Shown: one piece after another, positions 1 to 64,000 of the stretch
Layout of the letters: each line of letters starts with the position of its first letter
Position numbering within the stretch: position 1 is the stretch's first letter
NCBI RefSeq assembly: GCF_035084215.1
Contig: NC_090351.1
Location: forward strand, 33,542,001-33,606,000
Length of the DNA: 64,000 nucleotides
DNA from: Heptranchias perlo
Lineage: Eukaryota
Direction of reading: 5' to 3'
The notes under the pieces: generated by a model
The model's input: only the letters and a program-made list of their open reading frames with translations
What the model was told of the DNA's origin: nothing
The model's database searches: none
Translations under genes and position numbers: made by a program

Positions 1-1
1 G

Positions 2-8402
<8,401 letters not shown>

Positions 8403-26300: not shown

Positions 26301-29300
26301 GAATTACAATGAAGTTTCTCTCCCCCTGACTCCAGGAACGGAAAGCCTGCTGTGTTCACTGTAGTTCTTGTTATCTTTTACTTTGTTTACTTTATATTTT
26401 TTATATGTCAAAACAAGTACTAACAATATTGACCAAAAGTGTGCCCGCGCTATGTGCAGAACAAACTCGAGGGGCTGAATGGCCTACTCCTGTTCTTATG
26501 TGTCTTCAATGAGAAAGCAGTTCTTTTCAATTTCATATTAATGTTTTATTATTGTTCTATAATGCTAAACAATTGCTGTTTCTATTTGCATATTTATTGC
26601 AGAAAAAATGTTTTGTTGGCTACTTACCCTTATCTTTGGCAGTTTTCATCCTTTTCTTTCTCCATATAAGTAGAACCATCAGTGATAAGATTAATAGTCC
26701 CAGCACAGCTGAGAGGATGATGTACCATGTTTGTTGGGCAATTTTACTAAAAAATTAAAGTGGAATAGATGAAACTAAGGCTTTGTACATACAATAGAAC
26801 AAGTGAAAGTATCTCTAATACTTAGTAGATTGAACTAAAAAGAGGAATTGGTCTTAACTGTAATTATTCAAGAGCTAAAAGATGACCTATGTTCTGGTGA
26901 AACTATCTCTCACTGTTGAAACTCTGGGCTGAGGTGTGAGGCTTCCCTTGATGGAGGGAAGTCAAAGAAAGCGGACATACATAGCTCACATACTATCCCC
27001 AACTGACCGATTATTGTCAGGGCCTGGGAACATTTTGATCCCTAGCTTTTGCATTGATTGTATCGAATGGGAAGACAATTAATAGAAGAAGTATGGGGAA
27101 AAGTACAGCGCAAAAAAGGACATTGTGTGGACTGTGGTAGTTTTAAGGACATCAGCATTACTCATGAGGACAGCAGAACTGTCTATTAACTGTGACTTCA
27201 ATCAGAATGATTCAAGTTTTGTTATTTTGATGACAACTGTTAAAATCTTACCTTTTGATATTGATGCTAACTGTGGGGGTGGTGGATATGACCTCAGTAC
27301 TTAATGTTGGTCTTCTTGCTGTTTTAGGGGATTTATTAAAGAAAATATATTATAACAACGCAACAAATAACTGATAACCATCCACAACACAACATAACTT
27401 CCATCTTCTTCAAACCTTACGGTACCTAAGAAGGAGAATGCGGTGGGGTGGGAGGGAGGAAGACATTTTTTATTCACTCTATCACTGGCTGATTAAGTTT
27501 CATTTTCCTCTTGCCTTAAGACAATAGGTCAAATTCTGGATGGATGAACGAAGATGGGCTGAATGGACTTCTTTGTCCTTAATTATCGTGTGATCTTGTG
27601 AAAAGGAAGCCTGAGGAAAAGCTGGATTCTTAGTGGCAGAAACAACAAATGTACATTTTGAGGGGACTTCAAGAGTGGCTAACAGTGTTAGAAGGGCATC
27701 AAACTTAAACCCTTTCTATTTATTTTTATGAAGTTATTTGTGTAAGTTTCTATACTGTATATGTACATTTGTCCCTTGTTCTGTGTACTTCTGGCCTGAC
27801 GCCATTGTTAAGAGGATGGGTGGACTGCTTACTCTGAGGCCACCATCAATGATCCCTCTAGTCAGTCACTAGGAGGTGCCAGAAAGCACCCAGGCATGAT
27901 TCCACTCTCCAATATTTCCCTCCCTTGTGCTGGAAGATGCCACTCAACGCCTCACTGTTTAATCTGGCCAAACTAAAAAATGAGATAGAGTTTATGCTGC
28001 TTTCAGTCCAATATAATTTCCTGTTCTTTGCCATGGAAGGCCTGCTCTCCTTCCTTCATAAGCTGAATGAATTACAGCGCTGGACCAGCGACTGAAAGAA
28101 ATAGGAACAACCCTGGCTTCATTCACTGTCCATCCTAACACTGTATTCATTCAAAGTAATTCCAACTCATGATTTAAGTCCAGATTAAGATGACAATCAA
28201 TATAAATTTACTGAATTCTATGTATTGCCGGAAACAATAATTTAACTAAACTTTATGATATAAATCAAGTATTGTACAATATGTATGTGCAACAAGATGT
28301 AGAGAAGATGTTTCCACATGTGGACAAGACCAAAACCAAGGGTCATAAATATAAGATGGTCACTAATAAATCTAATAAGGAATTTAGGAGAAATGTCTTT
28401 ACCCAGAGGGTGGTTAGAATGTGGAACTTGCTACCACATGGAGCAGTTGAAGTGAAAAGAATAGATGCGTTTAAGGGGAAGCTGGATGAGTACATGAGGG
28501 AGAAAGGAATAGAAGGATACGCTGATCGGGTTAGATGAAATAGGGTGGGAGGAGGCTCGTGTGGAGCATAAACACCGGCACAGACCAATTGTTTCCGTGC
28601 TGTAAATTCTATGTTATTCTATGTAACACCAATTGAATTACAATAATTTTATATTGATTCTTACCATTCGAAATGTTCAGGACTTTAACCTGTGCAATCT
28701 CTACTTCAACTATTTTTGCTGCTCCACACCAGTACTCTCCTCCATCTCTTTTACGAATGTTGCTCATGGTAACGGCAAAACGCTGATCATCGTTAGTAGT
28801 GATTGATGCTCTGCCTTTATACAGATTTTGCACATGTCCATCAGAGCTGGCTATGGAGGTGCACTCATTTACAGAGGTTACTTTACACAATAATTTATTA
28901 TAGTCTATAAACTGCTCCGTGTACAGACACTGTACAGTGACTGCTTTTCCCGTTATACCATTGATCTGTGATTTGATTGGTGTCCATAATTCTGTTCGTA
29001 AATTAATAAAAAAACATTAAAAGTTTAAAATGCTGAAAAACGGAACATATTTTGTTGAACAAAATATACAATAAATGATCCAATCATTGAAAATGTCAAA
29101 AATGTTCATACTTAAGAACACAGTCACAGTGCTCAGTGGGCCTGTGTTCGGTCCCTGCCCGTTCTAATACTATATTTATTAATGGCCTCTATTTTGAACT
29201 GTATTTAAGAAGTAGGTCAGTCTAAATTTGGTAAATCCTTTCTGTATTGTGCTACTGCAGTGTAAACAAGAACATGTTAGGGTACATTTTCTAAGTCCAT

Positions 29301-32300
29301 GGAAGGTACCTAACTCCAGGCATGTTATACAGTGGAGGTCAGGAATAAGTTCAGGAAAGAGACCTGAGGATAGTTTTGGTTGCTAAAGATACACAAGCAA
29401 TGTGAGTTTGCTATTTGGAAGTCAAATAGAGTTTTAGGTGGTACTGCGAGAACCATTGAATACAAAATTGGTTACATAAGGACATCTGCCCTTGGGGTAT
29501 TGAGGGTGAAATCAATGGAAAAGAAAATCTGCAGACGCTACTTTCTGCGAATTGTGAATTTTTTTTGTTTCTGTATGACATTATTTATAATTGTGCCAAG
29601 TGTTTTTTTTTGCTACTATCCAGACCTTTATGTACAATGTGGAGAACAAAATATAGGACTGTAATATGTTCAATTACAATGAAGACAGGCTGCCGATTCG
29701 CTATCACCCATTTTACGCAACTGCCCCAAGAGCCATTTCACCCCCATTCGGGCCTAAATTCATTAGCGCCCAAAGTCGAGTGCGACATGCAGCCAAGGCG
29801 CACCAGAACGGAGAGGCCCGAGGACCATCCGAAATTAGGGGAGCGGGAAGGAGGCAATCGAGGTGGGGGTGGGTGGGTGGGGGTGGTGGTTGTATGAGCG
29901 CGGGCCGACAGCGGCTGCAGTCTTAATGTGGCAGTAGGAGGAGGACTCCTGCAGGCTTCTTCCAAGGCCTCCAGCGGCGCCGCTGTAGAGCCTGAAAAAG
30001 TAGTCGAAGCTTGCCTCCAACTCGCCTTAACCAATTTCGTGAACGGGTCTGGAAATGGGTTTCAGGAGGCTCATTTCAATATTGAAATGAGGACTGTGCT
30101 CATTTCAGGCGGCCGCCATTGCCGCCTTAAAAAAAAAGGCCCTACCGAATTCAGCAGTGGCTTGGGCACATATGGAAATGAAGGTTATTTTACTGTGGAG
30201 ACACAGGGGCTTGGATGGAATATGATTTAAGGTTTGTAAAATGATTGAGGGGAAAGGATACTGTCTGTTTAGATAGGTTAATGGAAATGGAGTTAATAGT
30301 GGGAGCCCGTGATCATACGTTAATAAGCTGAGCTCATAACGTGGCCCATACAGTCCCTGAACAGCAGCAATCCTGGTGTCACTGCACCCGGACCATATTA
30401 TCAGCCCTATTATCTTCCGATAAATTCTTACCTGCGAAAACCTTTAGCAGTATCACATCTAAAATATTGATATAATCTGCATTTTGATGTCCACACCAGT
30501 ACGTTCCTGTATCTCTCTCCTGAAGTCGTGTTATGGTAACGGAAATTAACCCATTGTCTTTGGTGATTGATGCTCTTCCACTATACTCTCTGTGCACAAA
30601 TCCCTTGGTGCTCACTATAGTAACGCATCTCCTCTTGGAAACTGCTTTACACCAGCTGTAGATGCCTTGGTTCACAGCCTGCGGACACTTCACTGTGACC
30701 GTTTCTCCCACTGCCGCTTTCATCACCATCGATGCAATTTGTGGCCACAAACCTGTTGGTGAAATTTAACGTCAGAAAGCTTAAAGTATCACAACAATCA
30801 ATTTTACCCAGCTCTTCTGGTAGAACACAAATAACAAATGCAAAGTCTTACACATGGGGAACAAAAAAAAAATCCAGGAAGCGACTATTGCTTAAATGGA
30901 AAGAAAATAATGTGTATGGAAAATGAAAGAGATCTGGGGGTCCTGATTGACAATAAATTGAAGCTTTCTCAACAACGCTCGGTGGCAGTGAGTAAAGCAA
31001 ATCAGATGTTGGGATGTATTAAAACGTCACTATTGAGCCGAAGTGGTGAGGTAATCCTGCCATTTTATAAATCATTGGTGCGACCGCACTTGGAATACCG
31101 TGTGCAGTTCTGGTCACCACATCACATAAAGGATATTGCAGCTATTGAAAGGATACAGACGAGAGCAACCAGAATGATTGAGGGATTGGATTATGAGGAG
31201 TGATTATGTAAATTGGGCATGTTCTCACTGGAAAAGAGAAGGTTGAGAGTTGATATGATTGCTGTTTCTCTTGGTCCCGAACAGTAGAACCAGAGAACAC
31301 GGCCTGTGCTTGAAGGGGGGCAAATTCAAAACCAATTTGTGGAAACATTATCTCAGTGAGCGAGTGGTTAATCTATGGAACAGGCTCCCTAGGGAGATGG
31401 CGGAAGCAGGTAGTATTGACTCATTTAAATGTAAATCAGATAGATTTCTTACAGAAAATAATATTTTCGGATACGGTGTATGAGTAATTTGAGACATGAT
31501 ATATGTTAAGTGTAGCATGCTTGGGAGGAACAGGTGGCAATGGTTCCAAAAGCTCTCCACCACTGGGGGTTTCCTCACCCCATATCTGGGTCTGTTGTAG
31601 ACTAATTGAGAGAGATTGATTGCTATGATTAGTCAACAACTCCATTATCGTTTTATCATGCGATTACCAGGATGGTAGAAGGTGAACTAGATGGACCTTG
31701 GTCTTTTTTCCTCAAGCAATTCTCATGTTCCTATCAATCTGCTGCAACACATGGGCCCGTATTCTCCTTGTCGTGTTTAAGATTTTCCAGCAGTAAGTCC
31801 TCAAATTTGCCCCTAAAGTACTACCTCCTGAAATGACACATAGGTGGTAATTTTCCGAGTACTCGTTGGCAGCGAGGAACCAGTGACTATTAGAAAGTTG
31901 CTTTTCCGATATGTCCTGGTGGCGGACGAGACTCTCGCTATCAGGATGTACTCGAAAAATGTAGGCAATCATCTGTTTATAAATCGAATGGAAGTCTTAA
32001 TTGTTAAAGTAAATCTGTGTACTTTGGGGATATGGATACAGGTCATAGCATCGAGGCGTTGGGCTGTGCACCAATGACAAAGAAGCACTCTTTAGTCCGC
32101 TGTCACGATTATGGGGACATTGGGAAACCAATAATTCGTTCTACTGAGCAACGTGACAGATATGGCTTGAGACATAACTTTGGAAGCTGCTGGCTGGCTG
32201 AGTGTGAGGTGGATTTAGCAAGGCTCTGAAAGGTGCTGGAAACATATGAAACCAGTCGGTATGGGCTTTGTGGGATTTAACTCATCACTCCAAACCCTCC

Positions 32301-33429
32301 TACTCATGCAGGTGTAACTAAGAGTGATTTACAGTTAGTGCAGTCACTAACTGTAAATCACTATCAGATTGATCTGTGGAGCCATTACAACGTCCTTAAG
32401 TGACTAAGGAAGCTTCACTTTTCATAATATCACTGTGCAGGTACCACTATACTGTCTGGCAGCATAGGCTGAGGTGGGTTATAACTTGCAGGAGAACCCG
32501 CTAATGGAAACAGAGCGGGAAAGTGATGTGCTTTTACTCAGTAGGCCAGCTCGGGAGCTCAACAATCAAATGATCTTTGATTAAATGAACAAACTATCAG
32601 TAAATGATATGTTACAACAACAACAACTTGCATTTAATATAGCGCCTTTAATGCAGTAAAAGTCCCAAGTTAAGAATAAACAACTTGAAATCTTAGAACG
32701 TGACGTTCATATTCACTTTACATTCCACACTGTAAGTTTATCTTCACTACTGTAGAAACCTGAGGACGGTTATTTTGTGCTGTTCGTCTCTGAATAGAAC
32801 TACAATCTAAATTTTGACGAAGGGCTTAAACCTGAAATGTTAGCCTGCCTGGGCCAATTTTCACCTGGCCAAATTGGCATTGTTGGAGTCGGTAGACTTA
32901 CTGCCCCGTTAACGTCGATGTCTGGCAGCCGCCATTTTAAAAGGGGCCTTCCTTTGTTATTTTGGGCAGTGGGCCTCTTGATAATGCAAATCGTACTCAC
33001 CCCTTCATATTCCTGTAATGTCCTACAATATCCCTCCGTCCACTTCCTTGATGGAACTCTCCATTCCGCTGACTCAAGCTTCTTCTGCATTGTCTCCTCC
33101 CTTTGCCCCACCATTGATGGCTGTGCCTTCAATTAGGTCCAACTCTCTGGAATTCCATCCCTAACCCCCCCTCCTCCTCCTCCTCGCCAGCAGCCTCTCC
33201 TCCTTTAAGACCCTATTTAAAACACATCTCTTTGACCAAGCTTTTGGCCACCCCTCCTAATCTCTCCTCATTTGGCTCGGTGTCCGTGTTCTTCACACCG
33301 CTGTGAAGCGCTTTGAGCCTTTTTTTTAATGTTAAAGACACAATATAAATGCGATCTGTTATTCTAAATATATAATTGGATAATCTTACTTGATATCAAA
33401 GTGAGGAACAGCAGAGCAGAGAACTCCAT
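23149..33429 (-). CDS. Gene A: pIgR/CD300 (CMRF35/MDIR)-like inhibitory receptor with two V-type Ig domains, 364 aa
   Basis: Seven exons with canonical splice sites and consistent phases: leader 33429-33390, Ig1 30752-30432, Ig2 28991-28665, stalk 27318-27252, TM 26746-26628, cytoplasmic 24984-24944 and ITIM exon 23328-23149. Total 1095 nt with no internal stop. Confidence 0.9.
24224..24812 (-). mobile_element. CR1 LINE fragments
   Basis: FFAQRVMNIWNSLPQRAV plus CR1 tail (24224-24480); RT pieces (24500-24812). Confidence 0.8.
24944..24984 (-). CDS. Gene A short cytoplasmic exon
   Basis: GNNENPEPPITVSK; ttttacag| and |gtaaga, phase 1-0. Confidence 0.8.
25822..26125 (+). mobile_element. tRNA-derived SINE (degraded)
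   Basis: A-box-like TGGCTCAACTGG at the 5' end; related antisense pieces near 3240-3330 and 42960-43030. Confidence 0.45.
26628..26746 (-). CDS. Gene A transmembrane exon
   Basis: WYIILSAVLGLLILSLMVLLIW followed by RKKR stop-transfer; 119 nt, phase 2-1. Confidence 0.9.
27252..27318 (-). CDS. Gene A S/T-rich stalk exon
   Basis: ARRPTLSTEVISTTPTVSINIK; aacag| and |gtaaga, phase 1-2. Confidence 0.82.
28291..28626 (+). mobile_element. CR1 LINE 3' end
   Basis: TKGHKYK...FTQRVVRMWNLLP plus tail with attctatg repeats. Confidence 0.85.
28665..28991 (-). CDS. Gene A Ig V domain 2
   Basis: GKAVTVQCLY...KLLCKVTSVNEC...YKGRASIT...DGGEYWCG; phase 1-1, 327 nt. Confidence 0.93.
29685..30152. mobile_element. 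GC-rich non-autonomous DNA-transposon-like remnant
   Basis: GC/CpG-rich block in an AT-rich intron; no credible ORF; family not determined. Confidence 0.4.
30432..30752 (-). CDS. Gene A Ig V domain 1
   Basis: GETVTVKC...WCKAVSKRRC...YSGRASIT...DTGTYWCG; extra Cx7C pair typical of CD300/pIgR/TREM; phase 1-1, 321 nt. Confidence 0.93.
30832..31732 (+). mobile_element. CR1 LINE 3' part with long 3' UTR
   Basis: ERDLGVLID...YKSLVRPHLEYRVQFWSP...ERVVNLWNRLP; the 3' UTR end recurs at 35275-35360. Confidence 0.88.
32323..32362. repeat. Perfect 18-bp-stem hairpin
   Basis: agtgatttacagttagtg-cagt-cactaactgtaaatcact. Confidence 0.9.
33055..33362 (+). mobile_element. L2 LINE 3' fragment
   Basis: caccattgatggctgtgccttc...ctctggaattcc...ctgtgaagcgcttt...tataaatgc; same tail as 37530-37764. 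Confidence 0.7.
33390..33429 (-). CDS. Gene A leader exon MEFSALLFLTLIS
   Basis: accATGG Kozak context, 40 nt, phase-1 |gtaaga donor. Confidence 0.85.
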
Positions 33430-40091: not shown

Positions 40092-40268
40092 TTATGCTTT
40101 CAAAAGAATTGTTGAATATTTTACAGTTTCCGAAGCATCTTGACCACTGGGTGACCGGTAGGTTTCTTGGGCTTTAAGATCCTGAACATTAACGTAAGTA
40201 TCTTCCCTGTCTGCTCTGGGGCGGATCTTCACAGTGGAGTATGTCACTTCATTATCTTCCTTAGAAAA
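40092..40268 (-). CDS. Gene B terminal ITIM exon
   Basis: FSKEDNEVTYSTVKIRPRADREDTYVNVQDLKAQETYRSPSGQDASETVKYSTILLKA*; ITIMs VTYSTV and VKYSTI. Confidence 0.9.
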   Translation of the reverse strand, partial: FSKEDNEVTYSTVKIRPRADREDTYVNVQDLKAQETYRSPSGQDASETVKYSTILLKA

Positions 40269-43200
40269 CTGAGACACATGGAAAACTGTCACCACAATAA
40301 TGGCACGGCGTCAACCAAACTCACAGCTTTTATCGGAACCAATGAAACTTGGATCTGCAAATGTTCTGTGTTATTGTCAACTGTACTGGTTACATATATT
40401 TACAGAAGACCAAATTTCCGTCATTCATTTCTGAGGGAGATTATACTCTTTTTTTTTAAATCTTGAGAAACTTGGGTGAAGGGCCAGAATGGTCACCATT
40501 ACCAAGGTTGAAAAGAATGGAAGAGAAGCTGAGGTAAGTCAGAAACTAAAGAAAGAAAGACTTGTATTTATGTAATGCCTTTCACGATTTCAGGACGTCC
40601 CAAAACGTTTTACAGCCAATTAAGTGCTTTTTGAAGTGTAGTCGCTGTTGTAATATAGCAACCAATTTGTACCGAGCAAGGTTCCAGAATGAGATAATGA
40701 CCAGATAATCTGTTTTAGTGATGTTGGTTGAGTGATAAATATTGGCCACGATACCAGGAAAAACCTCCCCTGCTCCTCTTCTTCAAATAGTGCAATGGGA
40801 TCTATTACATCCACCTAAAAGGGCAGAAGGGGCCATGGTTTAACGTTGCATCTGAAAGACGGCAACTCCGACAGTGCAGCACTCCCTCAGTTTCTGGGGT
40901 GTGACATGAACCCACAGCATCTGACTCAGAGGCAAGAGTGCTACCACAGCTGATACCTAATGTTTGGGTGCTGGAAAACTTGGTTTTGAAAGCCTGTAGA
41001 CTGTGTGAGAAAAAGACTTAAGGGAGTTAAGGCGGCTAATAATGTGACCAGAGTGCCATGCAGTAAAATCGAGGCCCTCGGTAGATTAGTCTCTGAGCCT
41101 GAGTGGGGGAGAGGAGGCCACTACCAGGTCCTCTGCCTCCATGGGAGGAACTCTGGGCCTTAACCACCATTTCCTGGGGTAGGGTTGCCAACCCTCCCGA
41201 ATTGCCTGGGACTCTCCCAGAATGGGGCATGCTGCTCGCGGCCTGCAAGTTCTAAATTTCGTGCCTCCCCCATCTCCCTAACAAACCCCCCCTCCCGACC
41301 CCCGCCACCGGCTAGTGCAGAGAACCTGGCGAGGTAAACATAAAATCATAGAAAATAGGAGCAGGAGTATGCCATTCGGCCCTTCGAGCCTGCTCCGCCA
41401 TTCAATATGATCATGGCTGATCCTCTATCTCAATACCATATTCCCGCTCTCTCCCCATACCCCTTGACGCCTTTTGTGTCGAGAAATCTATCTAGCTCCT
41501 TCTTAAATAAATTCAGTGACTTGGCCTCCACAGCCTTCTGTGGTAGAGAATTCAACAGGTTCACCACCCTCTGAGTGAAGAAATTTCTCCTCATCTCAGT
41601 CCTAAATGTCCTACCCCGTATCCTGAGACTGTGACCCCTCGTTCTGAACCACCTAGCCAGGCGAAACATCCTCCCTGCATCCAGTCTGTCTAGCCCTGTC
41701 AGAATTTTATATGTTTCAATGAGATCCCCTCTCATTCTTCTAAACTCGAGTGAATACAGGCCTAGTCGGCCCGATCTCTCCTCATGTGACAGTCCTGCCA
41801 TCCCAGGAATCAGTCTGGTGAACCTTCGCTGCACTCCCTCTATGGCAAGTATATCCTTTCTTAAGTAAGGAGACCAAAACTGCACACAATACTCCAGGTA
41901 TGATCTCACCAAAGCCCTGTATAACTGCAATAAGACATCCTTGCTCCTGTACTCAAATCCTCTTGCAATGAAAGCCAACATACCAAATGCAATAACGTTT
42001 GCAGATATCACGCGATCGGACATCGTGTGGTCCCAATATTGTGTGATCAGACCTCCAGGAGTGCCTCCAATCAGAGTTGGCAACCCTGTCCTGGGGCCTA
42101 CTGCCACCTTCCGCATCTATGGGTCTGACGTGGCATCATCTTACCTTGCAGATTACTGCAGGATTTTCCGCATCAGTAATGTTCTGTTCATTTGTGCCTA
42201 TAAAATAAAATTATAATTAAAACATCATTTTATAATAAGAATTTTATTGTGCTCAAACATGCAAAGATTCCTGATGGGTTTTATTCATTTAAGCAATGTT
42301 TGATATGTGTTTTATGGAAAACTTCATACATCCAGTTTATTATATGCTTTAAAGGAACTTTACTATCTGATAAAAAGAAGAAGGAAATTGCATTTATGTA
42401 GTGCCTTATCACATCTTCAGGAGGTCCCATTGGATTGCTGAATCCATTGGTTGCTAAAGAACTTGATTCATAAATTAGTCTATTTCAGCATAACATTACA
42501 CCTCTTGCAAAAACTCAAAGTGCCTCAGCAGGGCACAAAGAAGTAGATTTTCCTATTGCTGCGTCTGGGCATATTGGATCACATGGGTGCAGCGTTTCAG
42601 AGGAGAATCGGGTAGGGATGAGCGGGCACCCATAAGGGGGCCTATCCAAACTTCTTCTATGTGCTGTGCCTAGGTGATCCAATATACCCAGGCACAGTAA
42701 GAGGGAAATCTGCCCCACTATGGTGTAATCTCCTTACATTGTTTGAGTTAAAATGAACTGAAACAAACATAGTTTTCTCATTGGTGACAGTGGAAAGTCA
42801 CTGGAGGTAGCCTGATTTTGTTCACTTGTGAATAACCATTCTTTTTTTCCTTTCAGACATTTATTTTGCTAATTTGCTCCCCCCCCCTTTCCCCCCTGTC
42901 TTCTGTAGATGTTGACTTTAGCTGGCCTACAGTTCCACAGCTACCAGCTATCCTCCAATACTTTGCTCAAGTGGCAATTCTTTTGTGAGTGAGCCGACTA
43001 TTCAACCACGGAAGACATCGCAGCTCACGGAAGTCCCTCATCTCTGCTTTGCCGTGCTCCCCAAAATCCCAGCTGAAATGTGAACTCCCTGTGCAGGGAA
43101 TTGCATAGGTGAGTCTGGGCACAACCACTTCTGGTCGTTACACGAGATCTCAGTTTTTATATAACATTTTCTATTCCAATTGAATACTGCAAAATCTTGA

Positions 43201-46200
43201 AATATTGAATTGTGTTTAAAACCACTTGAGATGTATTGAATTTAAACTTGATGTATGTTCCTGCCCTGCAGTGTTTTCCCCCTGTGTGCTAGCCTTAGTC
43301 TAATAGTTCTTTGCATATATAAACATGAAATGATTAGAAAATGTTGGAAAACCTTCTTCCTTTGGATGAGACGTTAAACCGGGGCCCTGCCTGCCCTCTC
43401 AGATGCCCGTAAAAGATCCCATGGCACTATTCAAAGAAGAAGCAAGGGAGTTCTCCCTGGTGTCCTGGCCAATATTTATCCCTTAACCAACATCGCTAAA
43501 ACAGATTATCTGGTCATTTTCACATTGCTGTTTGTGGGATTTTGCTGTGCGGAAATTGGGTGCACTGTTTCCCTACATTACAACACTTCAAAATATTTAA
43601 TTATAGGAAAACCCTTTGGGATGTTTTCAGGTTGTGAAAGGGGCTGTAGAAATGCAAGTTCTTCTTCGTAGATATTTTAAACACAGTTGCTCTTGATTTT
43701 TATTTTGTTGTATTGGACTGAACTTACCACTGTTCTTCTGCTGTTTTGTTTTTGCACAAAGAATGACAGCAGCAACGAGCAGCAGGAAGACAATAATCAC
43801 CACGACTGCTGAAAGGACAACCTGCCATCGAGTCACAGCTTCCTTACTGCAAAATACAAGCGAAATATGTGGAGCATGAGATCGACAGAGCGGAGGTAAT
43901 TATAAAACAAGAACAACTTTATTCCTCTCCAGTCTTGTTCATCGTGTTTCAATCAGATAAATGAGAAGTGCATTTGATCATTGCTATATCTGTACCTCTA
44001 AATGGTGTAAGTTAAATTCTAGAAATTTATGAAATAATCCAACCACTCTATCGATATTTAAGGAAATACAATGGCCATGGAATGACATCATACAAAGGTT
44101 AGTGTGTGAACATTTAATGTGTTCCGACTAAATTCCGTGGCTATATTAACGGAGGCTTATTAAAAGCAAATTAACGCTTCTGATAAAATAGGAATTTAAC
44201 ACAAATGCGTTAAATTGTTGCTAATGTGCTGACATCCTCGGTCCAAGTAATTAGACCTTGAGATGCCCACAGTTTAAGTGTGCAGCTTGGCTCAGTTGGT
44301 AACACCTTTGTCTCTGAGGCAGAAGTTTGTGAACTCAAGCCTCACCATCGTAGTGCCAAGAGGTGCTTTCTTTCGGAGGAAAGGTTCCACCTGCCTGCTT
44401 ACATGGATGTAAAAGATCTCAAGGGAGAAAAGGGAACATCCTTCTGATGTGCTGATCAACATTCATCCCTCCAGAGGATGGGAATCAATATGGATTCAGA
44501 AGGAGAAAATCCTGCATGACCAACCTCCTTGACATCTTTGAGGAAGCAACGTCCCAGTGGACTGTGGTAAGTCCTTGAGCTGCTGTTTAGGTGCTTTCTG
44601 TCCTAAGCAACAGGCTGGCAATTGTCAAAATAGGTTTCTATTGTTGACCTTTTGAATAAAAACTGGTTTTGCTGCCTCAGGACTTGTTGCAGAATGCTAA
44701 TTAGTCTTTTACACGTAGTGATGGAGGCCATATTCAGTAACTTGTCACTCCCCTTTTTTGCGATGTAACTTATTTGGAAGCAGGCAGGAGGAAACTATCA
44801 CAAGCCTCCTTGACAGTTATTGGTCATTCCTGAGCCACAAACACCAGTTTCCCTAAAGTCAGAAACCCCCCTCCCCCAATCGTACAACTGCCTCACACCA
44901 CCTGGAATACAAAAGGGAAGCCTCACATTCGAACCAGCACCCCCTTCTATTCCTGCTCCAACATTCTTCATACCAACACTTGTTTTCCCTTTTCCTGAAC
45001 TTTTCCATACTTGCTGTTTGGCATCACGGTTCCACTCGCTCGCCTGCTCCCTCCCTCCGTGCAGGCTGCAGGGGTGCCACGACTGCTGCATGAGTGCTGC
45101 TGCCAGCCTAACCATGACCCAGCAGTGCAAGCTCATTCACAGGGGATGGAATCTTTAAATGAACATGAAGACCACTGCCATGCAAATCACTTGTACATTA
45201 AGTATTTACCACTCTTCATCAGGAGGTGTCCAGACCAAAATCTCGTCCTATTACCTGAAAAAAAATTGAATTCCTTCTGGCTCTTCCATGGGGATTTAAC
45301 TATACCTTCCCCATTTAATGGTGCTGGTGCTGTTCAGGCCCAGACAGTGCCCTGATTTCCTCTTCTGTCTGGCCCTGCGCCCAGGATTGCATCTGTTTCA
45401 TTATAATATGGCCCCATGAGGAAGCTCGAATGCTGAAGATGTCAGCGTAGCAATGCGCACGTCTGATGTGCTCTGCAATAATTGCTCCCGCACTGCAGCA
45501 GGGGAGGAAGATCAGCCTCTGGGCATCCTACAGAGAACATGTGAAGGACATCTCAACACGGCACCGTGCGGAAAATGTAATGCTGCAACTTTTATTTAGT
45601 TAATCACCTTCAAAAAAAAAGGGTGGGGATTGTCAGAAATACTTGAAATCTGCTCCATCCGATGCAAAGTACCAAAACGAAAAGGAATAGAATCTATTAT
45701 AAGTTTCACCAAGGATAGAATCATGGAATCATAGAAGTTTACAACACGGAAACAGGCCCTTCGGCCCAACATGTCCATGTCACCCAGTTTATACCACTAA
45801 GCTAGTCCCAATTGCCTGCACTTGGCCCATATCCCTCTATACCCATCTTACCCATGTAACTGTCCAAATGCTTTTTAAAAGACAAAATTGTCTACTGCCT
45901 CTGGCAGCTCGTTCCAGACACTCACCACCCTTTGAGTGATGGTGACGCTCCGTATTGTATTTGTCTCTCCAGGTCAGCATTTTAAAAATGCTCCAGTGGG
46001 TTATTCGCAGAATACTTTCATAGTTTTGGTAAAGATGCACAATATTGATTTCAACCTTTTGAGAGACTAACCTGACTGTTCCAGTGCTGTGAAAAGAAGT
46101 GGTGAGAGATGTCGCGACAGAAGCCTCAGTAGTCCTTGCTGTCCTCGTGGTTGGGCCCATTGTTGACTTCCGTGCTGGGGCTAAAATAGATGAACTTGCT

Positions 46201-49200
46201 GGACACTTAATCACTAAAGCATTTTTTGTATACAGTCTACTCCTCTTAATTTAGTTACTTAAATAATCTGATAAATCATTTTTTAGCACTGAATTCCCAC
46301 TTTGTGTTGTTTATGTTGCTTAATTCAAATGATCAATGCATTCAAAATAATTAAATCATTCAGTTTTTTTTTTAGGGCAAAAAAATGACCCAATTAGCAG
46401 AGCTAGACTGTGTGGCACAAAAAGATGAAATTAGAAGCAACAGCAACAAAGTACATGACCCATGAATGGTGGTTACTGGGTGTGTATATATAGTGCTGAT
46501 TCTCCTCCTCCTGACATAGTGTGAGTTGGGCGGAGGAATTGATCTCCGAGCGATCGATTACCATTGGGGAAGTGACACGACAACAACAACACAACAGCTG
46601 GCAGGTAAAACCTTTCAGTCGGGATATTTTTGCCAGCCCATTTCCACCCCCCTCCCCCACCCCTTCCTGATGGAGTGGCAAGTTGTTGCGCTGGAAATCC
46701 ACTGTCCCCATGGTCAGGGCACCCCAGTTGTGCCACAAATGGGTGCCCACCCATTTTATGCAAATGAACCTTCCCCCTGGGATTTGGCACAGGGTCATTG
46801 TCAGGGCAGACGGGTGGGAATTTCTGGGCTCATATATTTAAATTTGATCACAATAAACTAAATAGAAATATATTTGTCATCTTACTTTCAGAAACTTCTA
46901 ATTTGATAGAAATCCTTTCATTCATTTGAAATGTTGACCGTGCTATCACACACCAGTACAATCCTTCATCACTCTTCAGTAGGTGATTCATGGTAACTGA
47001 AAATATCCCTTGTGTTTTATTATCAGTCAGTGATACTCTTCCATGTTCTGGATGATCAGTAGAAACCACAACAGGACGTGAAAAAAAGTAAGTTTGACCT
47101 TTACACCATTGTTTAACATGGTCCTTGTAAATCAGATCATAGCGACAGTCCACAGTGACCGATCCTCCCACTTCTCCGTCAACCTTCTTTGGTCCAGTTA
47201 ATTGATATGACCCTGCGGGCATATTATTGATTGATTACATTATCAGAAACAACGAGAACAGTATTTAACTGAATAAACACTGCTGTTCCACTGTTAAAGC
47301 AGTCTGGTTGTTTGCAATTATCGATCAAATTCCATTTTTAATATCAAATTCCTTGTGTTGATTCTCATATCACCAACATTGTTACTCAAATTACAGCCTA
47401 TACAGAGCTTTTGGGGCGTGATTTTTCCAATATGGGGGCCTGTGACTTCCTGTTGTCTGCTGGGTGTGAGGCCAAATTCCCCGCTGGTTGTGCATTCTGA
47501 GAAAATTATCCTTGCCGTCATTGGAGATTGATAGTCTTTATTTACGCCGATTATCGCTTTTAAGTGAGACTAAAAAGCTCATTTAAATCCCAGATTTTTT
47601 CATTCTTTCTAACCGGTTCTCTCATTCTGCTCATTTCTAAGCTCAGTTATTTTATTTCACTTGCAAAGAGTAGTGATCTAATTGAATGGCGGAACAGGCT
47701 CGAGGGGCTGAATGGCCTTCTCCTGTTCTTATGTTCCTATGTTCCACTCTCTACAGTCTAAACTGTTTTTTTAAAAGTGGATCTAAACCTATTTCATCAA
47801 ATATTTAGTTTGCACGGATCTGATTCAGATGGCTCTCATTAAAATTTCTTCACTTTAGATTTCCCTGTGCTATTAGTCAGTCCTTCAATGAGAGGACAGA
47901 GAGCTGACCTGGTTAGAGGCTGTTACCGATAGTTCCCTGTAAATCACTACTAGGAAGTATGAGCAAAATTTTGGCATCCTGTCATCGGTCACCATATGCA
48001 GTCCATGTGCATATTGCAAGTCGTTGACCTCACATCTTGCGAGGTTGCTTATTCCAATATTATTCATGCATTCCCTACATGGATTAGGCACTGAGCAGGG
48101 GGCATAATTTCTGTGGGGACAGGATATCCGACACAGCAACAGGCTTAAAGGGACAGCAAAAATTGTCCAAAAATTGAGTGCATGACCTAGGTAATAATTG
48201 AGCTGCCAAATTACCCGACCCCTTGTCCGAGGACTTCACAGGAACTAGTGAGCAGGCAGAGCCAGGCTGCCCCTGCACCAGCAGAAGAGCAGCAGTGTGG
48301 AGTGGCCCCTTAAGGAGACATTTTGACAGAGCCTGAGAGCCTCCTCGATCTCAGGTGGCTCTCGTGGACACCCAGCTGGCTGTCACCCCACAGACCCCTG
48401 CCTTAGGGCTTCCTCTAAGAAGAAGCAGCATTAGACTAGGTGGGGGAACATGACAATCACCAACTGGTAGGAAAGGCAAGCACCAAGGTAGCAGACACTT
48501 GTTACAGAGACACAATTGGAGATCTGGAAAGTAAAGAGCTTTCTGCACAGCAGCTGTTGAGGTGAGAGGAATCAGAGAAGATGAAAGATATTTTGGACAG
48601 AGATGGAGTGGGGTTTTAGTGGCCCCTGGTGCTTGACATTTATTCAGGGTGAGATGTTTGTGTGGATTGGAAAGGCAAGGCTTCGATTTAGCTCAGGTGA
48701 ATAGTATTTCCCTGGCAGTGGTGACAGAGCCCAGTGGAGCTATCTCCTCTGCTTCCTCTGCCTCCCAATCTGTGACCTCCTGTATGTTTGTTTTGGCTCC
48801 CAGCTGGAGCTCCTCTGGGTGATTTCCTCTTTCCAAGTCAATGTTATGCACGATTCAGCAAACCATTACAATCCTGAAAACTTTGGCAGGTAATGCAGGA
48901 TGCTCCTTGAACTGTCCTGTCATCGGCATTCTCAATAATTGCCTTGGTGATGGCATGGGTCTCATTATATCTTCTCTCAGCTGGTGCACTGGAATGGTGC
49001 AAAGGAGGCATCAGACAAGGCAGCAGTGAGTATCCTTGGTCGCCAATGAAGCACTTCTTCACTCGTTGGGAATTTGCAATCAGTGGTGGAATACATGCTG
49101 CAGAATGAGGGCATCATGTTAGCAGCCTGGGAATTTGGCAGTCACTTGCCTGATGTGACGATGATGGTTGCGGACCAGCTGCATATTGATGAAGCAACAT

Positions 49201-51115
49201 CCCTTCTGATTCACATCTGGGCCTGTCCTGTCAGAAGGAGCCTGGAGGGACTACATGGGTTTTTGGATATCCAGCCTAAAACACAGTGCTCAGGCCTATA
49301 CCTCCCTGGGCTCCATGGAGAACTTTCAAACAAGGGATTTGCCATTTGTTGCATGCACCTATGCACTGCAGACTGGCTAATGTTACATATACCTCAAGCA
49401 AAACCCTGGAAGGACCCAAGAGGCAAAAAGGTTCAAGACAATGGTAACGTCAACAGCTGGAGGGAAAGCCATGTTTGCCCTGGACTGTGGTTGAAGGTTC
49501 TAAGCTCCCCATACCACCTTCCCAGCAAACCGCAGGTGTCAAACACACTGCTCCTTGCTGTTTCAGCAAAGTTGAACGATTAAGCCAAATCTTTTCCCCA
49601 AGATCGATGATTGTCCTGTTATCAAAATTGCTCTTGGTCACTTTAAAAAATGGATTGTTTTTATTCATTCTTGGGATGTGGGCGTCATTGGCGAGGCCAG
49701 AATTTATTGGCCTGAGAAGGTGGTGGGCCTTCCACTTGAACCACTAGCAGTTTAATGCAACTCAGGCCACTTCAGAGGGAAGTTAAGAGTCAACCATGTT
49801 GGTGTAAGGATGGCAGGTTTCTTTCCCTAACGTACATTAGAGAACCAGTTGGGTTTTTACAACAACCCAACAGCTTCATGGTAACTTTTACTAATAACAG
49901 CTATTTATTTCCAGATTTTTAAAACTGAATTCAAATTCTCAGACTTCCACAGTGGGATTCGAACTCACGCTCTCTGGATTATTAGTCTAGGCCGACTGGA
50001 TTACTAGTCTGGTAAGATAATCACCACACTATCCGTACCCATTGCCTCCAAAATACAGCCTTCAAAGTCCAGTGCCCACTTTTCAGGCAAACTTGAGGTA
50101 GACGTGACAGGAAAATTGGTTATCTTTTGGTGCAGGAAAGCAATGAGAAATAAATGCAGCGTGAAGGCTGGAAGGTTAAAATACTTTCTTTGTGGAACTG
50201 TTGGTTTGGCAACACACCAAGAGCATCATGGATGATTCAGTTGAGGATGTTATCTATGTGCACTGGTGTCAAACAGAGCGTTCGGTGAATCTAAAGATAG
50301 GTGTTGTAGGGCTAGTCCAAAAAACGACAGGAGGAGGTTTATCAGCTCTGAGCTGGTACTGAGAAATATGATCATTTAAATGCAAGTAAACTCACAAGTC
50401 ACAAAACAAATTGCTTCAACAGCAATTACATTATTTGAGCTTCAGTTGCTGGATAAAGCACAGTGTGAAGAAACACTCAAGGCTCTGATGCAATTCAATT
50501 TTTGGTAACATCTAATCTTTTAGAAGAAGTGAGATATTGCTGATATTTCTTTAAATGTAATTGAACTGAAATAATGGAGCATGGTGATTTTTCTTTTGAA
50601 AAGAACTTCTGTTTTAAAGTCTGATATTTCACACAGTTTGCATTTTAAGAGACAATGTTCGAGGTTCAACATTTTTCTGTGCAGTCTGTAGAGAGAAGTG
50701 CCTTGGGACGTTTCACTACGTTAAAGGTGCTGAATAAATGCAAGTTTTTTGTTGTAAGCCTAAAAAGAAATGAAGTTCGCCTCTTGGCATTGATGAGGAG
50801 CCGGAGTTTCAGGTAGGACAGAGCTGCAAGAGGGCCGAAAGAATCAGATGCAGCGGGAAAGCACAGAAAGAAGCGAAGGTGGATTGAAGATGCTGGAAAA
50901 GCACATGGATATTACAACAACAACAACTTGCAAGACCGTGGGTGGTTTACCTTTAGCTGACTGCACCAAAACTCCAGATTAGTCAGTCAGTCGAAGTTTC
51001 TGGTCTTCATCTCCTCTGATTACAAAAGTACTTTTTAGTAACAGTAAAAAAACAAGATTTAAAAGAAAGACTTACCTGGTGCAGAAGTCAGAATCAAAAG
51101 AGCAATTAATTCCAT
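40092..51115 (-). CDS. Gene B: CD300/CMRF35 (MDIR)-like inhibitory receptor with a single V domain, 274 aa
   Basis: Six exons with canonical splice sites: leader 51115-51076, Ig 47212-46886, stalk 46180-46072, TM 43846-43728, cytoplasmic 42197-42145 and ITIM exon 40268-40092. Total 825 nt with no internal stop. Confidence 0.9.
40548..40958 (-). mobile_element. Deu-domain-type SINE, near full length
   Basis: Reverse complement of the core at 37983-38290, with a tRNA-like head near 40900-40958. Confidence 0.72.
41180..42088. mobile_element. hAT-type MITE containing a nested CR1 fragment
   Basis: TIRs tAGGGTTGCCAAC and GTTGGCAACCCTg; 8-bp TSD tcctgggg at 41172-41179 and 42089-42096. Confidence 0.85.
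41346..41990 (-). mobile_element. Young CR1 LINE 3' part
   Basis: ORF 41430..42116: LYRALVRSYLEYCVQFWSP...RRMRGDLIETYKIL...FFTQRVVNL. Confidence 0.92.
42145..42197 (-). CDS. Gene B short cytoplasmic exon
   Basis: GTNEQNITDAENPAVICK; ttttatag| and |gtaaga, phase 1-0. Confidence 0.8.
43358..43668 (+). mobile_element. Deu-domain-type SINE
   Basis: Same core as 37983-38290. Confidence 0.7.
43728..43846 (-). CDS. Gene B transmembrane exon
   Basis: WQVVLSAVVVIIVFLLLVAAVILC-AKTKQQK; 119 nt as in gene A. Confidence 0.9.
45716..45938 (-). mobile_element. CR1 LINE 3' end
   Basis: atagaatcatggaatcatagaag tail and cagacactcaccaccct (RVVSVW). Confidence 0.75.
46072..46180 (-). CDS. Gene B mucin-like stalk exon
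   Basis: TPARKSTMGPTTRTARTTEASVATSLTTSFHSTGTV; phase 1-2. Confidence 0.85.
46886..47212 (-). CDS. Gene B Ig V domain
   Basis: LTGPKKVDGEVGGSVTVDCRY...KQWCKG...GRVSLTDNKTQGIFSVTM...DEGLYWC; phase 1-1, 327 nt. Confidence 0.94.
48840..49230 (-). pseudogene. PIF/Harbinger DDE transposase relic
   Basis: Minus strand NQKG..INMQLV...KFPGC*HDALIL and IGDQGYSLLPCLMPP...ERRYNETHAITKAIIE, HARBI1-family motifs with stops and frameshifts. Confidence 0.8.
49657..50040 (-). mobile_element. tRNA-headed SINE sharing both head and tail with the LINE at 53791-57044
   Basis: B box GAGTTCGAATCC; body matches 56715-57044; tail matches 53791-53900. Confidence 0.8.
51076..51115 (-). CDS. Gene B leader exon MELIALLILTSAP
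   Basis: gcaATGG, 40 nt (same size as gene A leader), |gtaagt donor. Confidence 0.85.
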
Positions 51116-51219
51116 TGCTGTGGACAGTTTCTGGTGGGTGAATTCACCCTGGGCAGACATCGTATTTTAGCTGTACTGTGTTTGAATCGGTTGGTTCCTT
51201 ATACTGTATTTGAGTTGGT

Positions 51220-58625: not shown

Positions 58626-59876
58626 GTAGGATACAATAATTTTTTTCTCTGCTTGTAAAATAATAGTCCCGTAACCATTTCAGGTTTATCTGAGCTGATC
58701 GCTTAGCAGTCATGTTGATAATATGCACAGAATATGTAAATATGTACCATGCAATATAATGGCGAGATACCTGGTGTTAGACCAAAAGTACACTTGACCA
58801 AAAAAATATGTTGGGTCAACAAGTTGAGTGTTGGTAGCCGTCCCCATGCCTTGTTCTACTTCTACAGCAGAGAAGCGTCATTATTTAAGAGGTTTCCCCT
58901 TCAAAATTCAGACTTGAATTTTAACATGGGTACTTTTAGGGGCAGAGAGAACTTGGCACAGTCCAGTGAACTGGTTCACTAAACCATGTTACTTTAGCAT
59001 GCAATTTTGTTATCGTCACAAACCTTATTATAGAGCTGTATTTTCCTACTTTGAATGGGCTATGGTTTTCAGAGAATGATTGCACAGCCTAATGAAAAGT
59101 TCTTTGTACAGCACTAGAATTTTATTTTTTTTTCTTTCTTGTATCACAGAAGTTATCCCAATGAATGTACATTCTGGGCCTACGTTAAGTCTAGCAACAT
59201 TCCATCGTAATTGGCTACATAAAATACATTACCTGACATGCCACCCTGAGTATCACCTCACCTCAGTATAATCAAATATCCACAGAAAGATTGTTACCAA
59301 ATGTCAGAACTTTCATTGTTTAGGTGATGGTTTATTAGCAAAAATATTCAATTTGTTAACAGATTCAACCTCAGTCTCCTGTTGCCATTGTATACAGTGA
59401 TGTGCATTTAATTTGACATGTGATCAATCGACATAATAAACACAATCAATGACCCGATAAGTCTGTCAAAAAACATCTTGCAACGCAATGGTTTTAGAAA
59501 AAAAATTTATAAAGGCAGTTGGGGGCAGTTTACGTCTACTCTGTAAAGCTAGAAATTATTGTTGGCCTCATCAGTCGATGAGCACGCAATTCGTCCGTAT
59601 GACACGTCCTGTCTGCTACTTTAACGCAGATATTAGCCCATTTATTTTAAGTGTTAACACGTCTGCTGAAATAGTGGATTGCAATCCAGAAGCGTTAAGC
59701 ATTCACCTGTTAATAACAATGAGAGTAATCTCTGAGCCACATTTCTTCAAAAACGGCGCAGGCTGTAGAATTGAAGCTGTCAGCTGAGATGAAGACATTG
59801 ATAAAAATGGAACTAAGTACTTCAGACTGTCCTTATAAAGTTAGAAAGTAAGTTTAAAGTATCGGTAACAGAAGCA

Positions 59877-60050
59877 TTATGATTGAAATGCAAGAGTAGG
59901 ATATTGAATTGATTCTGAAGCATCTGCAGCCTCCTACTGTTCATGATGAGGCTTCTCATAAATATAAGTGGGGAAGTCTTCTTGTATCTGAGTGCTGAAT
60001 TTGCTTGTTGCCATGTCATATGTGATATCTTGTCCATCATCTCTGAAAAA
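59877..60050 (-). pseudogene. Gene C: decayed ITIM exon of a third CD300/pIgR-like paralogue
   Basis: ttttaaaag|FFRDDGQDITYDMATSKFSTQIQEDFPTYIYEKPHHEQ*EAADASESIQYPTLAFQS* aligns end to end with the terminal exons of genes A and B; internal TAG at 59936-59934. Confidence 0.85.
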
Positions 60051-60234
60051 CTTTTAAAAAAGCATTTATAAATGATTGTTGCCATACTACAGTGTGTCGA
60101 TTGATTTCAAATAGAAGAAAATTTAACACTTGTGATTGATAAAGGATTCTGTTATAAAATGCTGCATTTTATTTTGTTGTACTTTCTTCCATAATTTCGT
60201 TGAGAAGCTGGAATAAATTAGAAGAAGGACTTAC

Positions 60235-60284
60235 CCATACAACTTTTCATTGTGCCCACAAGAATTTTTTAATAAGTTTTGTTT
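60235..60284 (-). CDS. Gene C putative short cytoplasmic exon carrying a stop codon
   Basis: catacag| and |gtaagt; 50 nt, compatible with phase 1-0 like the 41- and 53-nt exons of A and B; reads ETKLIKKFLWAQ*. Confidence 0.55.
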
Positions 60285-61414
60285 CTGTATGAATATATGA
60301 ATATAGCATAAAAACTTGGTGTCCAATTGATCCATGCTAACCACTTGGTTCTATCAGTCACATGGATCGTAGGGATCAGTTAGTTCCAAGAATCACATTA
60401 TACAATAAACACAGAAGGCAGCCATTACACCTCCACACCAAAAATTGAAAGTTGAAAGCTTAGGCCTGGTCAAGTTCTGGGCCCCTCATAAGCCTTGGAC
60501 TCAATTTATGAGCAGATGCAATCAGGGGTAACAGATGCTGAAGTCGACTCAATGTTTAACACTGCATGTTTCTTGTCCTCTCACCTCCCATGGAGACCTG
60601 GAATCCAATTGGGGCTCCAAGCTTCTAACAATTGTAGAAATGATCTTTTCTTGGGAGTGGAAGACTGGTGTGTGTTATTTTGTTATGTTGTCAAGTAATT
60701 CCTAGTTCTAGGCTATGAACCCTCAGCTCAAGCTCCAGGAGGCATCAAGGAGTAGGTGAGGGGGAGCCTGGGACAGAGTGACTGAGAAGGTGGAAAGGGA
60801 TCAATGAAGAAGGGTCAGGGGGAGCCAGCAGGGACACTAGGAGGCAGTGAAGAGGGAGATTAGGGTTGGCAGGTTGTTTGGGATAAGGTTGGGACCAGAA
60901 GGGATCAAACTGGGGATAATACTGCACCACCTAACTCATACCAAGAGCCTGATGAAAATTAAGCTCTAGAGTTTAAAATAAAGTTACAAAGATAAGAAAT
61001 TTAACACGCAGGCCAGGATTCTCCTCCCAGCTGCAGCACCAGAGGGGGCAGCTGGGCAGTTAAAGGGGCAGAAAGGTGTTGAAGGTTGGCACATTGACTG
61101 CTTTGTAGGCCTCGGCAGAGACTAAAGCTTATAAAGCAAGGTAAGTGGGGACCAGAATGAAGGGGAGGAGGCCCCTACAAGGCCCTTTCCGTCTGTGGGG
61201 AGACTTTAGGGCTGTTACTGCTGCTTCCCGAGACCTACTGTCAACTTCTCTATGGCGACCCTGGGAAGCAGCGGTAACAAATGAGGACAAGGAGGGAAAT
61301 CAGGCAGGATTGGGGGTGATAATCCAGCCCACACATTTTTTAAAGTATTAAAATAAATGAGCTTTACTTCATATTGTTTTCCTGGCTGTAATTAGAATGA
61401 TTAATTATTTAAAA

Positions 61415-64000
61415 TTTGGAGGGGGAGGGCGAACAGCCAGCTGTTGTGGTGCACATAGGCACCAACGATATAGGTAAAAAAGGGGATGAGGTCCTAAAAG
61501 CAGAATATAGGGAGTTAGGAGGTAAATTAAAAAATAGGACCTCAAAGGTAGTAATCTCAGGATTGCTGCCAGTGTCACGTACTAGTCAGAGTAGAAATAG
61601 GAGGATATTTCAAATGAATACGTGGCTAGAGGAATGGTGCAAGGGGGAGGGATTCAAATTCCTGGGACACTGGAAACGGTTCTGGGGGAGGTGGGACCAG
61701 TACAAACCGGACGGTCTGCACCTGGGCAGGGCCGGGACCGCTGTCCTAGGAGGAGTGTTTGCTGGTGCTGTTGGGGAGGGTTTAAACTAAAGTGGCAGGG
61801 GGTTGGGAACCTGAGCAGGGAGAGAGAGGAAAGCGTAACAGGAAGGGACAGAAGGTATGGAGTAATAGGTAAAGTGTTAAAAAAGGAAAAAGCAGGAACT
61901 AAGCGTCACAAAACAGATTTGAAAGTTCTTTATCTGAATGCACGTAGCATTCATAACAAAATGGACGAGTTAACGGCACAAATAACTACGTATGGGTATG
62001 ATCTTGTGGCCATTACAGAAACATGGCTGCAGGGTGACAACGACTGGGAATTAAATATGCCAGGGTATTTAACAATCAGGAAGGACAGGCAGGAAGGAAG
62101 GGGAGGTGGGGTGGCTATGTTAATAAAGGAAGGAATCACTGTAATACAGAGAAATGATATTGGGACAAAGCATCAAGATAATGAAACAGTTTGGGTGGAG
62201 ATAAGGAATAATAAGGGAAAAAAAACATTAGTGGGCGTAGTATATAGGCCTCCTAATAGTTGCAACTCTGCTGGAAGAAGTATTAATCAGGAAATAGTCG
62301 GGGCATGTAATAAGGGAACAGCCATAATTATGGGGGATTTTAATTATCATATTAACTGGACAAATCAAATTGGGCAGAGCAGCCTTGAGAACGAGTTCAT
62401 TGAGTGCATCAGGGATGGATTTCTTGAGCAGTATGTAACTGATCCTACAAGGGGGCAGGCAACCTTGGACCTGGTCCTGTGTAATGAGTCAGGATTAATT
62501 AATAATGTCCTAGTTAAGGATCCCCTTGGAACGAGCGACCACAACATGGTTGAATTCCATATCCAATTAGAGGGTGAGAAGGTTGATTCTCAAACAAGCG
62601 TACTGAGCTTGAATAAAGGAGACTATGATGGTATGAGAGCGGAATTGATTAAAGTGGACTGGGAAAATAGATTAAAGGGTAAGACGGTACATGAGCATTG
62701 GTGTTCATTTAGGGAGTTATTTTACAACTTTCAAAATAATATATTCCACTGAGGAAAAAAGGGTGTAAAAGCCATCCGTGGCTAAGTAAAGAAATCAAGG
62801 ATAGGATCCGACTAAAAACAAGGACATATAAGGTAGCCAAACTTAGTGGGAGGATAGAAGATTGGGAAGTCTTCAAAAGACAGCAAAAAGTAACTAAAGG
62901 ATTGATTAAGAAAGGGAAGTTAGATTATGAAAAGAAATTAGCAAAAAATATAAAAACAGATAGCAAGAGTTTCTATAGTTATATAAAAAGAAAAAGGGTG
63001 GCTAAGGCAAACGTAGGTCCCTTAGAGGATGAGACCGGGAAATTAATGGTGGGAAACATGGAGATGGCAAAAATGCTGAACAAATATTTTGTTTCAGTCT
63101 TTACAGTAGAGGACACTAAGAATATCCCAACACTGGACAAACAGGGGACTCTCGGGGGGGAGGAGCTAAATACGATTAAAATCACTCAGGAGATGGTACT
63201 CAGTAAAATAATGGGACTCAAGGCGGATAAATCCCCTGGACCTGATGGCTTACATCCTAGGGTCTTGAGGGAAGTGGCAGTAGGGATTGTGGATGCTTTG
63301 GTGATAGTTTTCCAAAATTCCCTGGACTCAGGAGAGGTCCCGGCAGATTGGAAAACTGCTAATGTAACACCGTTATTTAAAAAGGGTAGTAGGCAGAAGG
63401 CTGGAAATTATAGGCCAGTTAGCTTAACATCTGTGGTGGGTAAAATTTTGGAGACTATTATTAAGGAGACAGTAACGGAACATTTAGATAAGCATAATTT
63501 AATAGGACAAAGTCAGCATGGCTTTATGAAGGGGAAGTCATGTCTGACAAATTTGCTTGAGTTCTTTGAGGATATAACGTATAGGGTGGATAAAGGGGAA
63601 CCAGTGGACATAGTGTATTTAGACTTCCAGAAGGCATTCGACAAGGTGCCACATAAAAGATTATTACTTAAGATAAAAAATCACGGGATTGGGGGTAATA
63701 TTCTGGCATGGGTGGAGGATTGGTTATCGAACAGGAAGCAGAGAGTTGGGATAAATGGTTCATTTTCGGACTGGCAACCAGTAACCAGTGGTGTTCCACA
63801 GGGGTCGGTGCTGGGTCCCCAACTCTTTACAATCTATATTAACGATTTGGAGGAGGGGACCGAGTGCAACATATCAAAATTTGCAGATGATACAAAGATG
63901 GGAGGGAAAGTAGAGAGTGAGGAAGACATAAAAAACCTGCAAGGGGATATAGACAGGCTGGGTGAGTGGGCGGAGATTTGGCAGATGCAATATAATATTG
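61415..64000 (+). mobile_element. Young CR1 LINE: end of ORF1 (SGNH esterase), then ORF2 endonuclease and RT running off the window
   Basis: ORF1 VVHIGTND...DGLHL; ORF2 LYLNARSI, ITETW, GDFN, SDH; 1-nt frameshift near 62740; then QHGF, FQKAFDKVPH, PQGSVLGP, KFADD. Confidence 0.95.

Follow-up and report, generated by a model that had tools for sequence, protein, structure and literature searches.

Gene C of Heptranchias perlo, one of a tandem cluster of Ig-receptor genes, has lost both of its ITIMs: one by substitution and the other through a stop codon that leaves the motif behind in the 3' UTR. The loss is real, and mammalian paired receptors are known to lose ITIMs in this way, by a stop that strands the motif in the UTR. 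Here the change occurs in the oldest lineage with antibody immunity, apparently with an age of hundreds of millions of years. Judged from its sequence, C is probably a non-inhibitory, adaptor-free receptor that captures a ligand and is sorted or internalised via its remaining tyrosines. ITIM loss without a turn to an activating receptor with a charged transmembrane (TM) helix would be a third outcome, kept in a stable orthologue. An initial annotation of this DNA had recognised a third paralogue in which both ITIMs were gone, and explained it by a 50-nt exon and a short-tailed activating or decoy partner of the neighbouring genes. That reading mistook the exon and likely also the function.

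The window, by which we mean the whole 64,000-nucleotide stretch analysed (NC_090351.1, positions 33,542,001 to 33,606,000), contains the minus-strand genes A (23149..33429) and B (40092..51160) and the 3' end of C, all within the cluster. A further 200 kb past the window was also read. Window numbering is continued there and marked 'ext'; adding 33542000 gives the position on NC_090351.1. Paralogue A has two IgV domains, B has one IgV domain and an uncharged TM helix, and the tail of each carries two ITIMs and a YxN motif. With domain 1 of C as the query against the genome, 17 of the 18 matches fell at 33.57-33.91 Mb of NC_090351.1. Further Ig copies reach 33.91 Mb of this contig, and a lone related IgV exon lies on it about 4.8 Mb away from the cluster (28751472-28751738, plus strand).

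The cluster is flanked by an AHCYL-type gene (adenosylhomocysteinase 2/3), whose 3' end lies at window 1-6020 on the plus strand, and on the other side by a G-alpha-i gene, also on the plus strand. In human 1p13, GNAI3 and AHCYL1 adjoin and TMIGD3 is nearby; the Tweety genes adjoin the human CD300 locus. A search with this one marker, Tweety, gave matches on four other contigs and none on NC_090351.1. The cluster may be a shark expansion at a 1p13-like position rather than the CD300 locus. Upstream of C, gene E carries an arginine in its TM helix (WSVLRW, ext 145359-145264) with a stop immediately after, and at least three further TM exons (ext 226787, 243713 and 260493) have the same helix arginine. 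These tandem genes are near-identical to E and spaced by about 17 kb, and two Ig domains compared are 91% alike. By their sequences, the genes with an arginine in the TM helix are likely the activating members.

The evidence for ITIM loss lies in the terminal exon of C. RNA data came from three runs (X1, X2 and X3) of one sample in one study, kept as contigs, and contigs drop rare forms. The splice site at 60050 and the contigs define an exon that runs on the minus strand from 60050 to about 59144. Its coding part, 59934..60050, consists of 38 codons and a TAG (59936-59934), and its translation equals residues 310-347 of the protein model XP_067863879. Behind the TAG, 59877..59933 is an untranslated relic of the ancestral tail end, with 18 sense codons in frame, and the rest of the 3' UTR occupies 59144..59876; individual contigs end at 59216, 59144 and 59145. 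The exon starts in phase 0, as in A, B and D, and its 174 nt to a TAA (59879-59877), the ancestral or family stop, are in register with the paralogue stops. Colinearity with the terminal exons of A (23328-23149) and B (40268-40092), noticed from the start, is thus borne out, and it extends to D, which lies outside the window.

Within this exon, the proximal ITIM has degenerated to ITYDMA (60026-60009), and a perfect ITIM, IQYPTL (59909-59892), survives behind the TAG, just as the initial annotation described. Contigs of X1 and X2 cover the TAG with no other letter and run contiguously through the relic; X3 has a hole at 59822-60013. The ITIM pattern [ILVS]xYxx[ILV] is absent from the translated tail, and its sole match lies behind the stop. 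A further change reported among the losses, from TYANL or TYVNV in A and B to TYIYE, stands as a change, with TYIYE at 59969-59955 within FPTYIYE (59975-59955), but not as an ITIM loss: TYANL and TYVNV fall outside the pattern and match YxN. Is the sequence behind the stop truly a remnant of the tail? Over its last 48 nt, 34 positions are identical to A, 32 to B and 32 to D. None of 5855 background windows from the introns and UTR of C is as good, the maximum being 25-26 of 48, so the homology is real.

The rest of the gene lies past the window, also on the minus strand. In the RNA contigs a stalk exon (ext 80869-80809), a TM exon (ext 68894-68788), a 56-nt cytoplasmic exon encoding NPVY (ext 67046-66991) and the last exon are joined. 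Where contigs run off the last exon, at 60051, their loose end matches the 3' end of the 56-nt exon some 3 kb past the window in all three runs; the contigs place the last intron of C at 60051..64000 and on to 66990. The joints between the TM exon and the 56-nt exon are GT-AG-ended in every run, and the contigs therefore represent spliced RNA. A single 1771-nt contig of X1 covers the TM, 56-nt and last exons, and the same joints are seen in X2 and X3. The leader (ext 106451-106403) and the two Ig exons, IgV1 (ext 90203-89874) and IgV2 (ext 87105-86782), were placed from DNA and XP_067863879, not from RNA. Together, the seven exons have AG/GT ends and yield an open frame of 347 amino acids equal to residues 1-347 of XP_067863879, with a type I layout of leader, two IgV domains, stalk, TM helix and tail. 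The Ig exons, whose intactness had been left to be checked, are intact: both domains score above the Pfam V-set cut-off in an open frame. The charged Lys, Arg or Glu that had been anticipated in the TM exon is missing from the exon now found, and the helix has no charged residue at all. The tail comprises 64 residues with four tyrosines, in NPVY, ITYDM and FPTYIY among its motifs. Because a stop in the last exon is outside the NMD rules, NMD is not at issue for C.

XP_067863879 is named 'polymeric immunoglobulin receptor-like', and its residues past 347 are gene B. The fusion is rejected: X1 and X2 contigs continue past the TAG, and no canonical acceptor could be matched to the fusion junction. 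The annotation needs correction, as the fused C and B model conceals the stop and also the fact that C and B are separate genes; most of the shark models examined have fusions of a similar kind. Such fused models (D with C, or C with B) appear in many chondrichthyans and are likely false multi-TM 'pIgR-like' proteins.

What, then, of the 50-nt stretch? It lies in the last intron at 60235..60284 on the minus strand, and the letters that suggested an exon with strong splice sites are all present: AG before it, GGTAAGT at its end and, 12 nt ahead of the donor, a TGA. Its status as an exon is not borne out, however: the RNA skips it in three of three runs. Contigs of all three have neither a joint nor a loose end at 60284 or 60235. 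The 60235-60050 junction that had been predicted is missing from them, and 60050 joins the 56-nt exon instead. A 277-nt X1 contig (60186-60461) passes both edges of the stretch unspliced; this contig differs from the assembly at 60368 (C to A on the plus strand), possibly a heterozygous site. The GTAAGT string occurs nine times in the 46-kb span of C. The true counterpart of the small cytoplasmic exons of A (41 nt) and B (53 nt), which run from phase 1 to phase 0, is the 56-nt exon, in the same phases. It follows that the ETKLIKKFLWAQ frame, with its stop, requires the TM exon to skip the family exon. To allow for the stretch in any frame, four alternative splice products were translated next to the RNA-supported one, and RNA supports none of the four; inclusion in phase 0 with an AG at 60043 was rejected, likewise without RNA support. 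The stretch is likely a pseudo-exon. As contigs drop rare forms, a minor isoform containing it may exist.

Orthologue models of C were compared from nine sharks (Heptranchias perlo included), rays and the chimaera Callorhinchus. The tree has 25 rows, with each gene type represented once per species; isoforms, several D-type tails, near-duplicates from Chiloscyllium plagiosum and Mobula hypostoma, and a Pristis model without the last exon are omitted. The chimaera groups with all 13 elasmobranch C rows (100/99), and the group follows species-tree order, with a warning from the tool of long branches meeting. At the family positions, no elasmobranch C tail has an ITIM (0/13); B tails have at least two in six of six species, and A has two. 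Two Scyliorhinus C tails fit the ITIM pattern at another position (SLYKDL). Not one of the 14 C-type proteins has D, E, K, R or H in its TM helix.

The ends of the orthologous tails, which are gene-model ends rather than DNA, bear on the age of the loss. Eight of the 13 models, from five galeomorph sharks and three rays, end four residues past the Heptranchias stop; the skate model is four residues longer again, that of Mustelus terminates early, and two fused models were cut at KEPI. The chimaera protein has a long tail with NLYSTV and VEFSTL, in which YSTV is kept and the distal Tyr has become Phe. Protein searches found no other squalomorph orthologue, and a tail profile run against 206 proteins found no more C-type tails except isoforms of species already found. 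By parsimony over these ends, truncation came before the shark-ray split, which dates cited in a passage of PMC8010645 put at more than 350 million years ago. The ITIM loss thus likely predates that split; a fresh switch from inhibitory to non-inhibitory in this genome is contradicted by the orthologue models of sharks and rays, which share the loss.

The tail of C is 55-69% identical to those of the eight other sharks, near the 57-73% of the Ig domains. YD[MVI] is found in all nine sharks and FPxYI in eight. NPxY occurs in six of 13 C tails, the proximal tyrosine in none of four rays, and the skate is without YI; rays have shed most of the tyrosines. This makes a fixed signalling motif less credible, and the tail motifs are not essential everywhere. 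In the ectodomain, an NR in the loop before KYWC of domain 1 is present in seven of nine sharks and absent in the chimaera, and ray orthologues have domain-2-like domains only, in one to four copies.

How old is the stop itself? It could be young in the Heptranchias lineage, or even a polymorphic allele, following an ancestral squalomorph C with a working distal ITIM. The chimaera (Tyr to Phe), the rays and galeomorphs (stop at +5) and Heptranchias (TAG at +1) would then have lost the motif separately, with the same present protein as the result. Private changes affect 8 of 40 informative sites in the relic, compared with 9 of 40, 12 of 43 and 11 of 41 in the coding ends of A, B and D. Second codon positions of the relic are identical to A at 16 of 16 and to B at 15 of 16, no frameshift occurs up to the ancestral stop, and genuine UTR past the family stop cannot be aligned (13-18 of 48). 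Heptranchias also has an Asp codon, ancestral and as in B, where other species stop. The Asp codon and the lack of excess decay in the relic fit a single old loss poorly. Against a young stop, rays and galeomorphs would have to stop at the same codon independently, and the Heptranchias branch is short (0.096, and 0.18 from the shark-ray fork). A literature search yielded no neutral rate for sharks; if 0.09-0.2 neutral changes per site are assumed, 15 sites would all stay unchanged with a probability of 0.26-0.05. Slow evolution may explain the preservation of the relic, and we consider a young stop unlikely. Good preservation would also suit a relic that is still used: alternative splicing, in frame, to the AG within the stop, or readthrough of the TAG, would then give a minor ITIM isoform. 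The 56-nt exon joined to 59933 would be in frame and end in IQYPTL. Yet the three runs contain no such joint or loose end, the pyrimidine tract before the TAG is poor, and no fetched orthologue model reads the relic, the chimaera's long tail excepted; TAG-G is not known to be leaky, which counts against readthrough. Use of the relic seems to us quite improbable. The same holds for its corollary, that one gene gives rise to a non-inhibitory and an ITIM-bearing receptor by a single-exon paired-receptor switch, closed in other sharks and rays. We prefer an old loss, in which the proximal ITIM would have decayed and the tail been cut in the shark and ray ancestor, Heptranchias then gaining a further stop four codons earlier.

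As to function, the reading we favour is a ligand-capturing receptor that, from what is known of the family, would neither recruit SHP-1/2 nor couple to DAP12 or FcR-gamma, with NPVY, YD[MVI] and FPxYI as putative trafficking or weak-docking motifs. Since arginine-TM genes exist upstream, an activating role is likely filled by others. The initial annotation had instead included the 50-nt exon in the gene, so that C would pair with A and B as an activating receptor with a short tail. The stretch is indeed bounded by an AG and a consensus donor, and a direct joint to the TM exon would provide the frame. But the RNA skips the stretch or crosses it unspliced, no aligned orthologue model has such a peptide, and the uncharged helix, found in 14 of 14 C-type proteins, speaks against adaptor-coupled activation. 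Nor is the tail short, with its 64 residues and four tyrosines and the 50-nt exon skipped in every run. Pairing with A or B fares no better: the Ig domains of C are 33-48% identical to those of A, B, D, E, F and G, too low for a paired partner, against 51% between C's own two; genes further along the cluster, compared with domain 1 of C only, are 38-43% identical. Taken whole, the proposal is highly improbable. The word 'decoy' could still apply in the loose sense of a non-inhibitory binder. A plain pseudogene, which had been named as the alternative, would account for an in-frame stop ahead of a perfect ITIM; it is contradicted by the open seven-exon frame, the spliced RNA, the stop in the last exon and the orthologues in 12 other elasmobranchs and the chimaera, and we give it next to no weight.

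A receptor that binds or transports immunoglobulin, of the pIgR or Fc-alpha-mu-R type, is a rival of another kind. Like C, pIgR has no ITIM and an uncharged TM helix; the NPxY motif of C, its related IgV domains, its database name and the NR in the loop before KYWC of domain 1, resembling domain 1 of pIgR, offer a weak lead in the same direction. The top PDB matches of the C domains are pIgR and CMRF35-like proteins. Both domains have a second cysteine pair in the C-C' region (KYWC...SC and KYLC...SC); by these V-set domains and its type I layout, C belongs to the CD300/TREM/pIgR-type IgV receptor superfamily. Domain by domain, however, the best structure is CMRF35-like molecule 1, at 97.8 and 83 bits, and mammalian pIgR domains reach at most 52 bits. 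The NR loop of C is one residue shorter, the chimaera is without NR, and the rays retain domain-2-like domains only. On these comparisons an immunoglobulin receptor appears very improbable. If C did bind immunoglobulin, or if the relic were used, this would be relevant to how antibody responses are tuned and moved in sharks. The ligand-capturing, non-inhibitory receptor is still the reading we hold.

Several known systems invite comparison. Activating KIR, Ly49 and Siglec-14 derive from inhibitory genes, with ITIM relics left in the 3' UTR by nonsense change. They gain a charged TM helix and keep a near-identical ectodomain, whereas C has neither, and its ITIM loss is likely far older than these pairs. 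In the CD300 family, CD300A and CD300LF are inhibitory and CD300C is activating. C shares with this CD300/CMRF35-like family an IgV domain in which KY[W/L]C is followed by an extra cysteine pair, and has CMRF35-like molecule 1 as its best match, and the cluster is likewise a tandem mix of ITIM genes and charged-TM genes. C differs in having two Ig domains, neither an ITIM nor a charged TM residue, and no close ectodomain partner. Like C, the CD300-type receptors CD300LG and TMIGD3 have no ITIM and an uncharged TM helix; the database calls one D-type orthologue TMIGD3-like. According to PMC12447643, the tail of CD300C is short, its signalling relies on a TM glutamate, and gene conversion keeps CD300A and CD300C alike. 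The domains of C, by contrast, are only 33-48% identical to those of its neighbours. By family description, the most likely counterparts of the cluster are the MDIRs of skate (modular domain immune-type receptors, reported by Cannon et al. 2006). PMC3031540 describes the MDIRs as a multigene family with activating and inhibitory members, like CD300, TREM and pIgR. PMC4016189 found no PIGR homologue in shark genomes. A search of the open-access literature found no paper on the cluster or on gene C.

Some minor features of the locus deserve mention. The leader exon of B (51160-51076) has two in-frame ATGs, 45 nt apart, and an N-terminal extension bearing FTHQK recurs among B-type models of other sharks and rays. 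Part of the last intron of C is a multi-copy repeat with no strand assigned (61415..64000, on to 64925), labelled CR1 in the initial annotation; self-comparison gives up to 23 overlapping matches to it. Elsewhere in the window, 15850-19730 and 35990-37023 contain a repeated reverse-transcriptase element, presumably Penelope-like, whose end resembles GIY-YIG; its several copies are 96-100% identical. Two copies form an inverted pair at 36037-37023, with zero spacer at 36529/36530.
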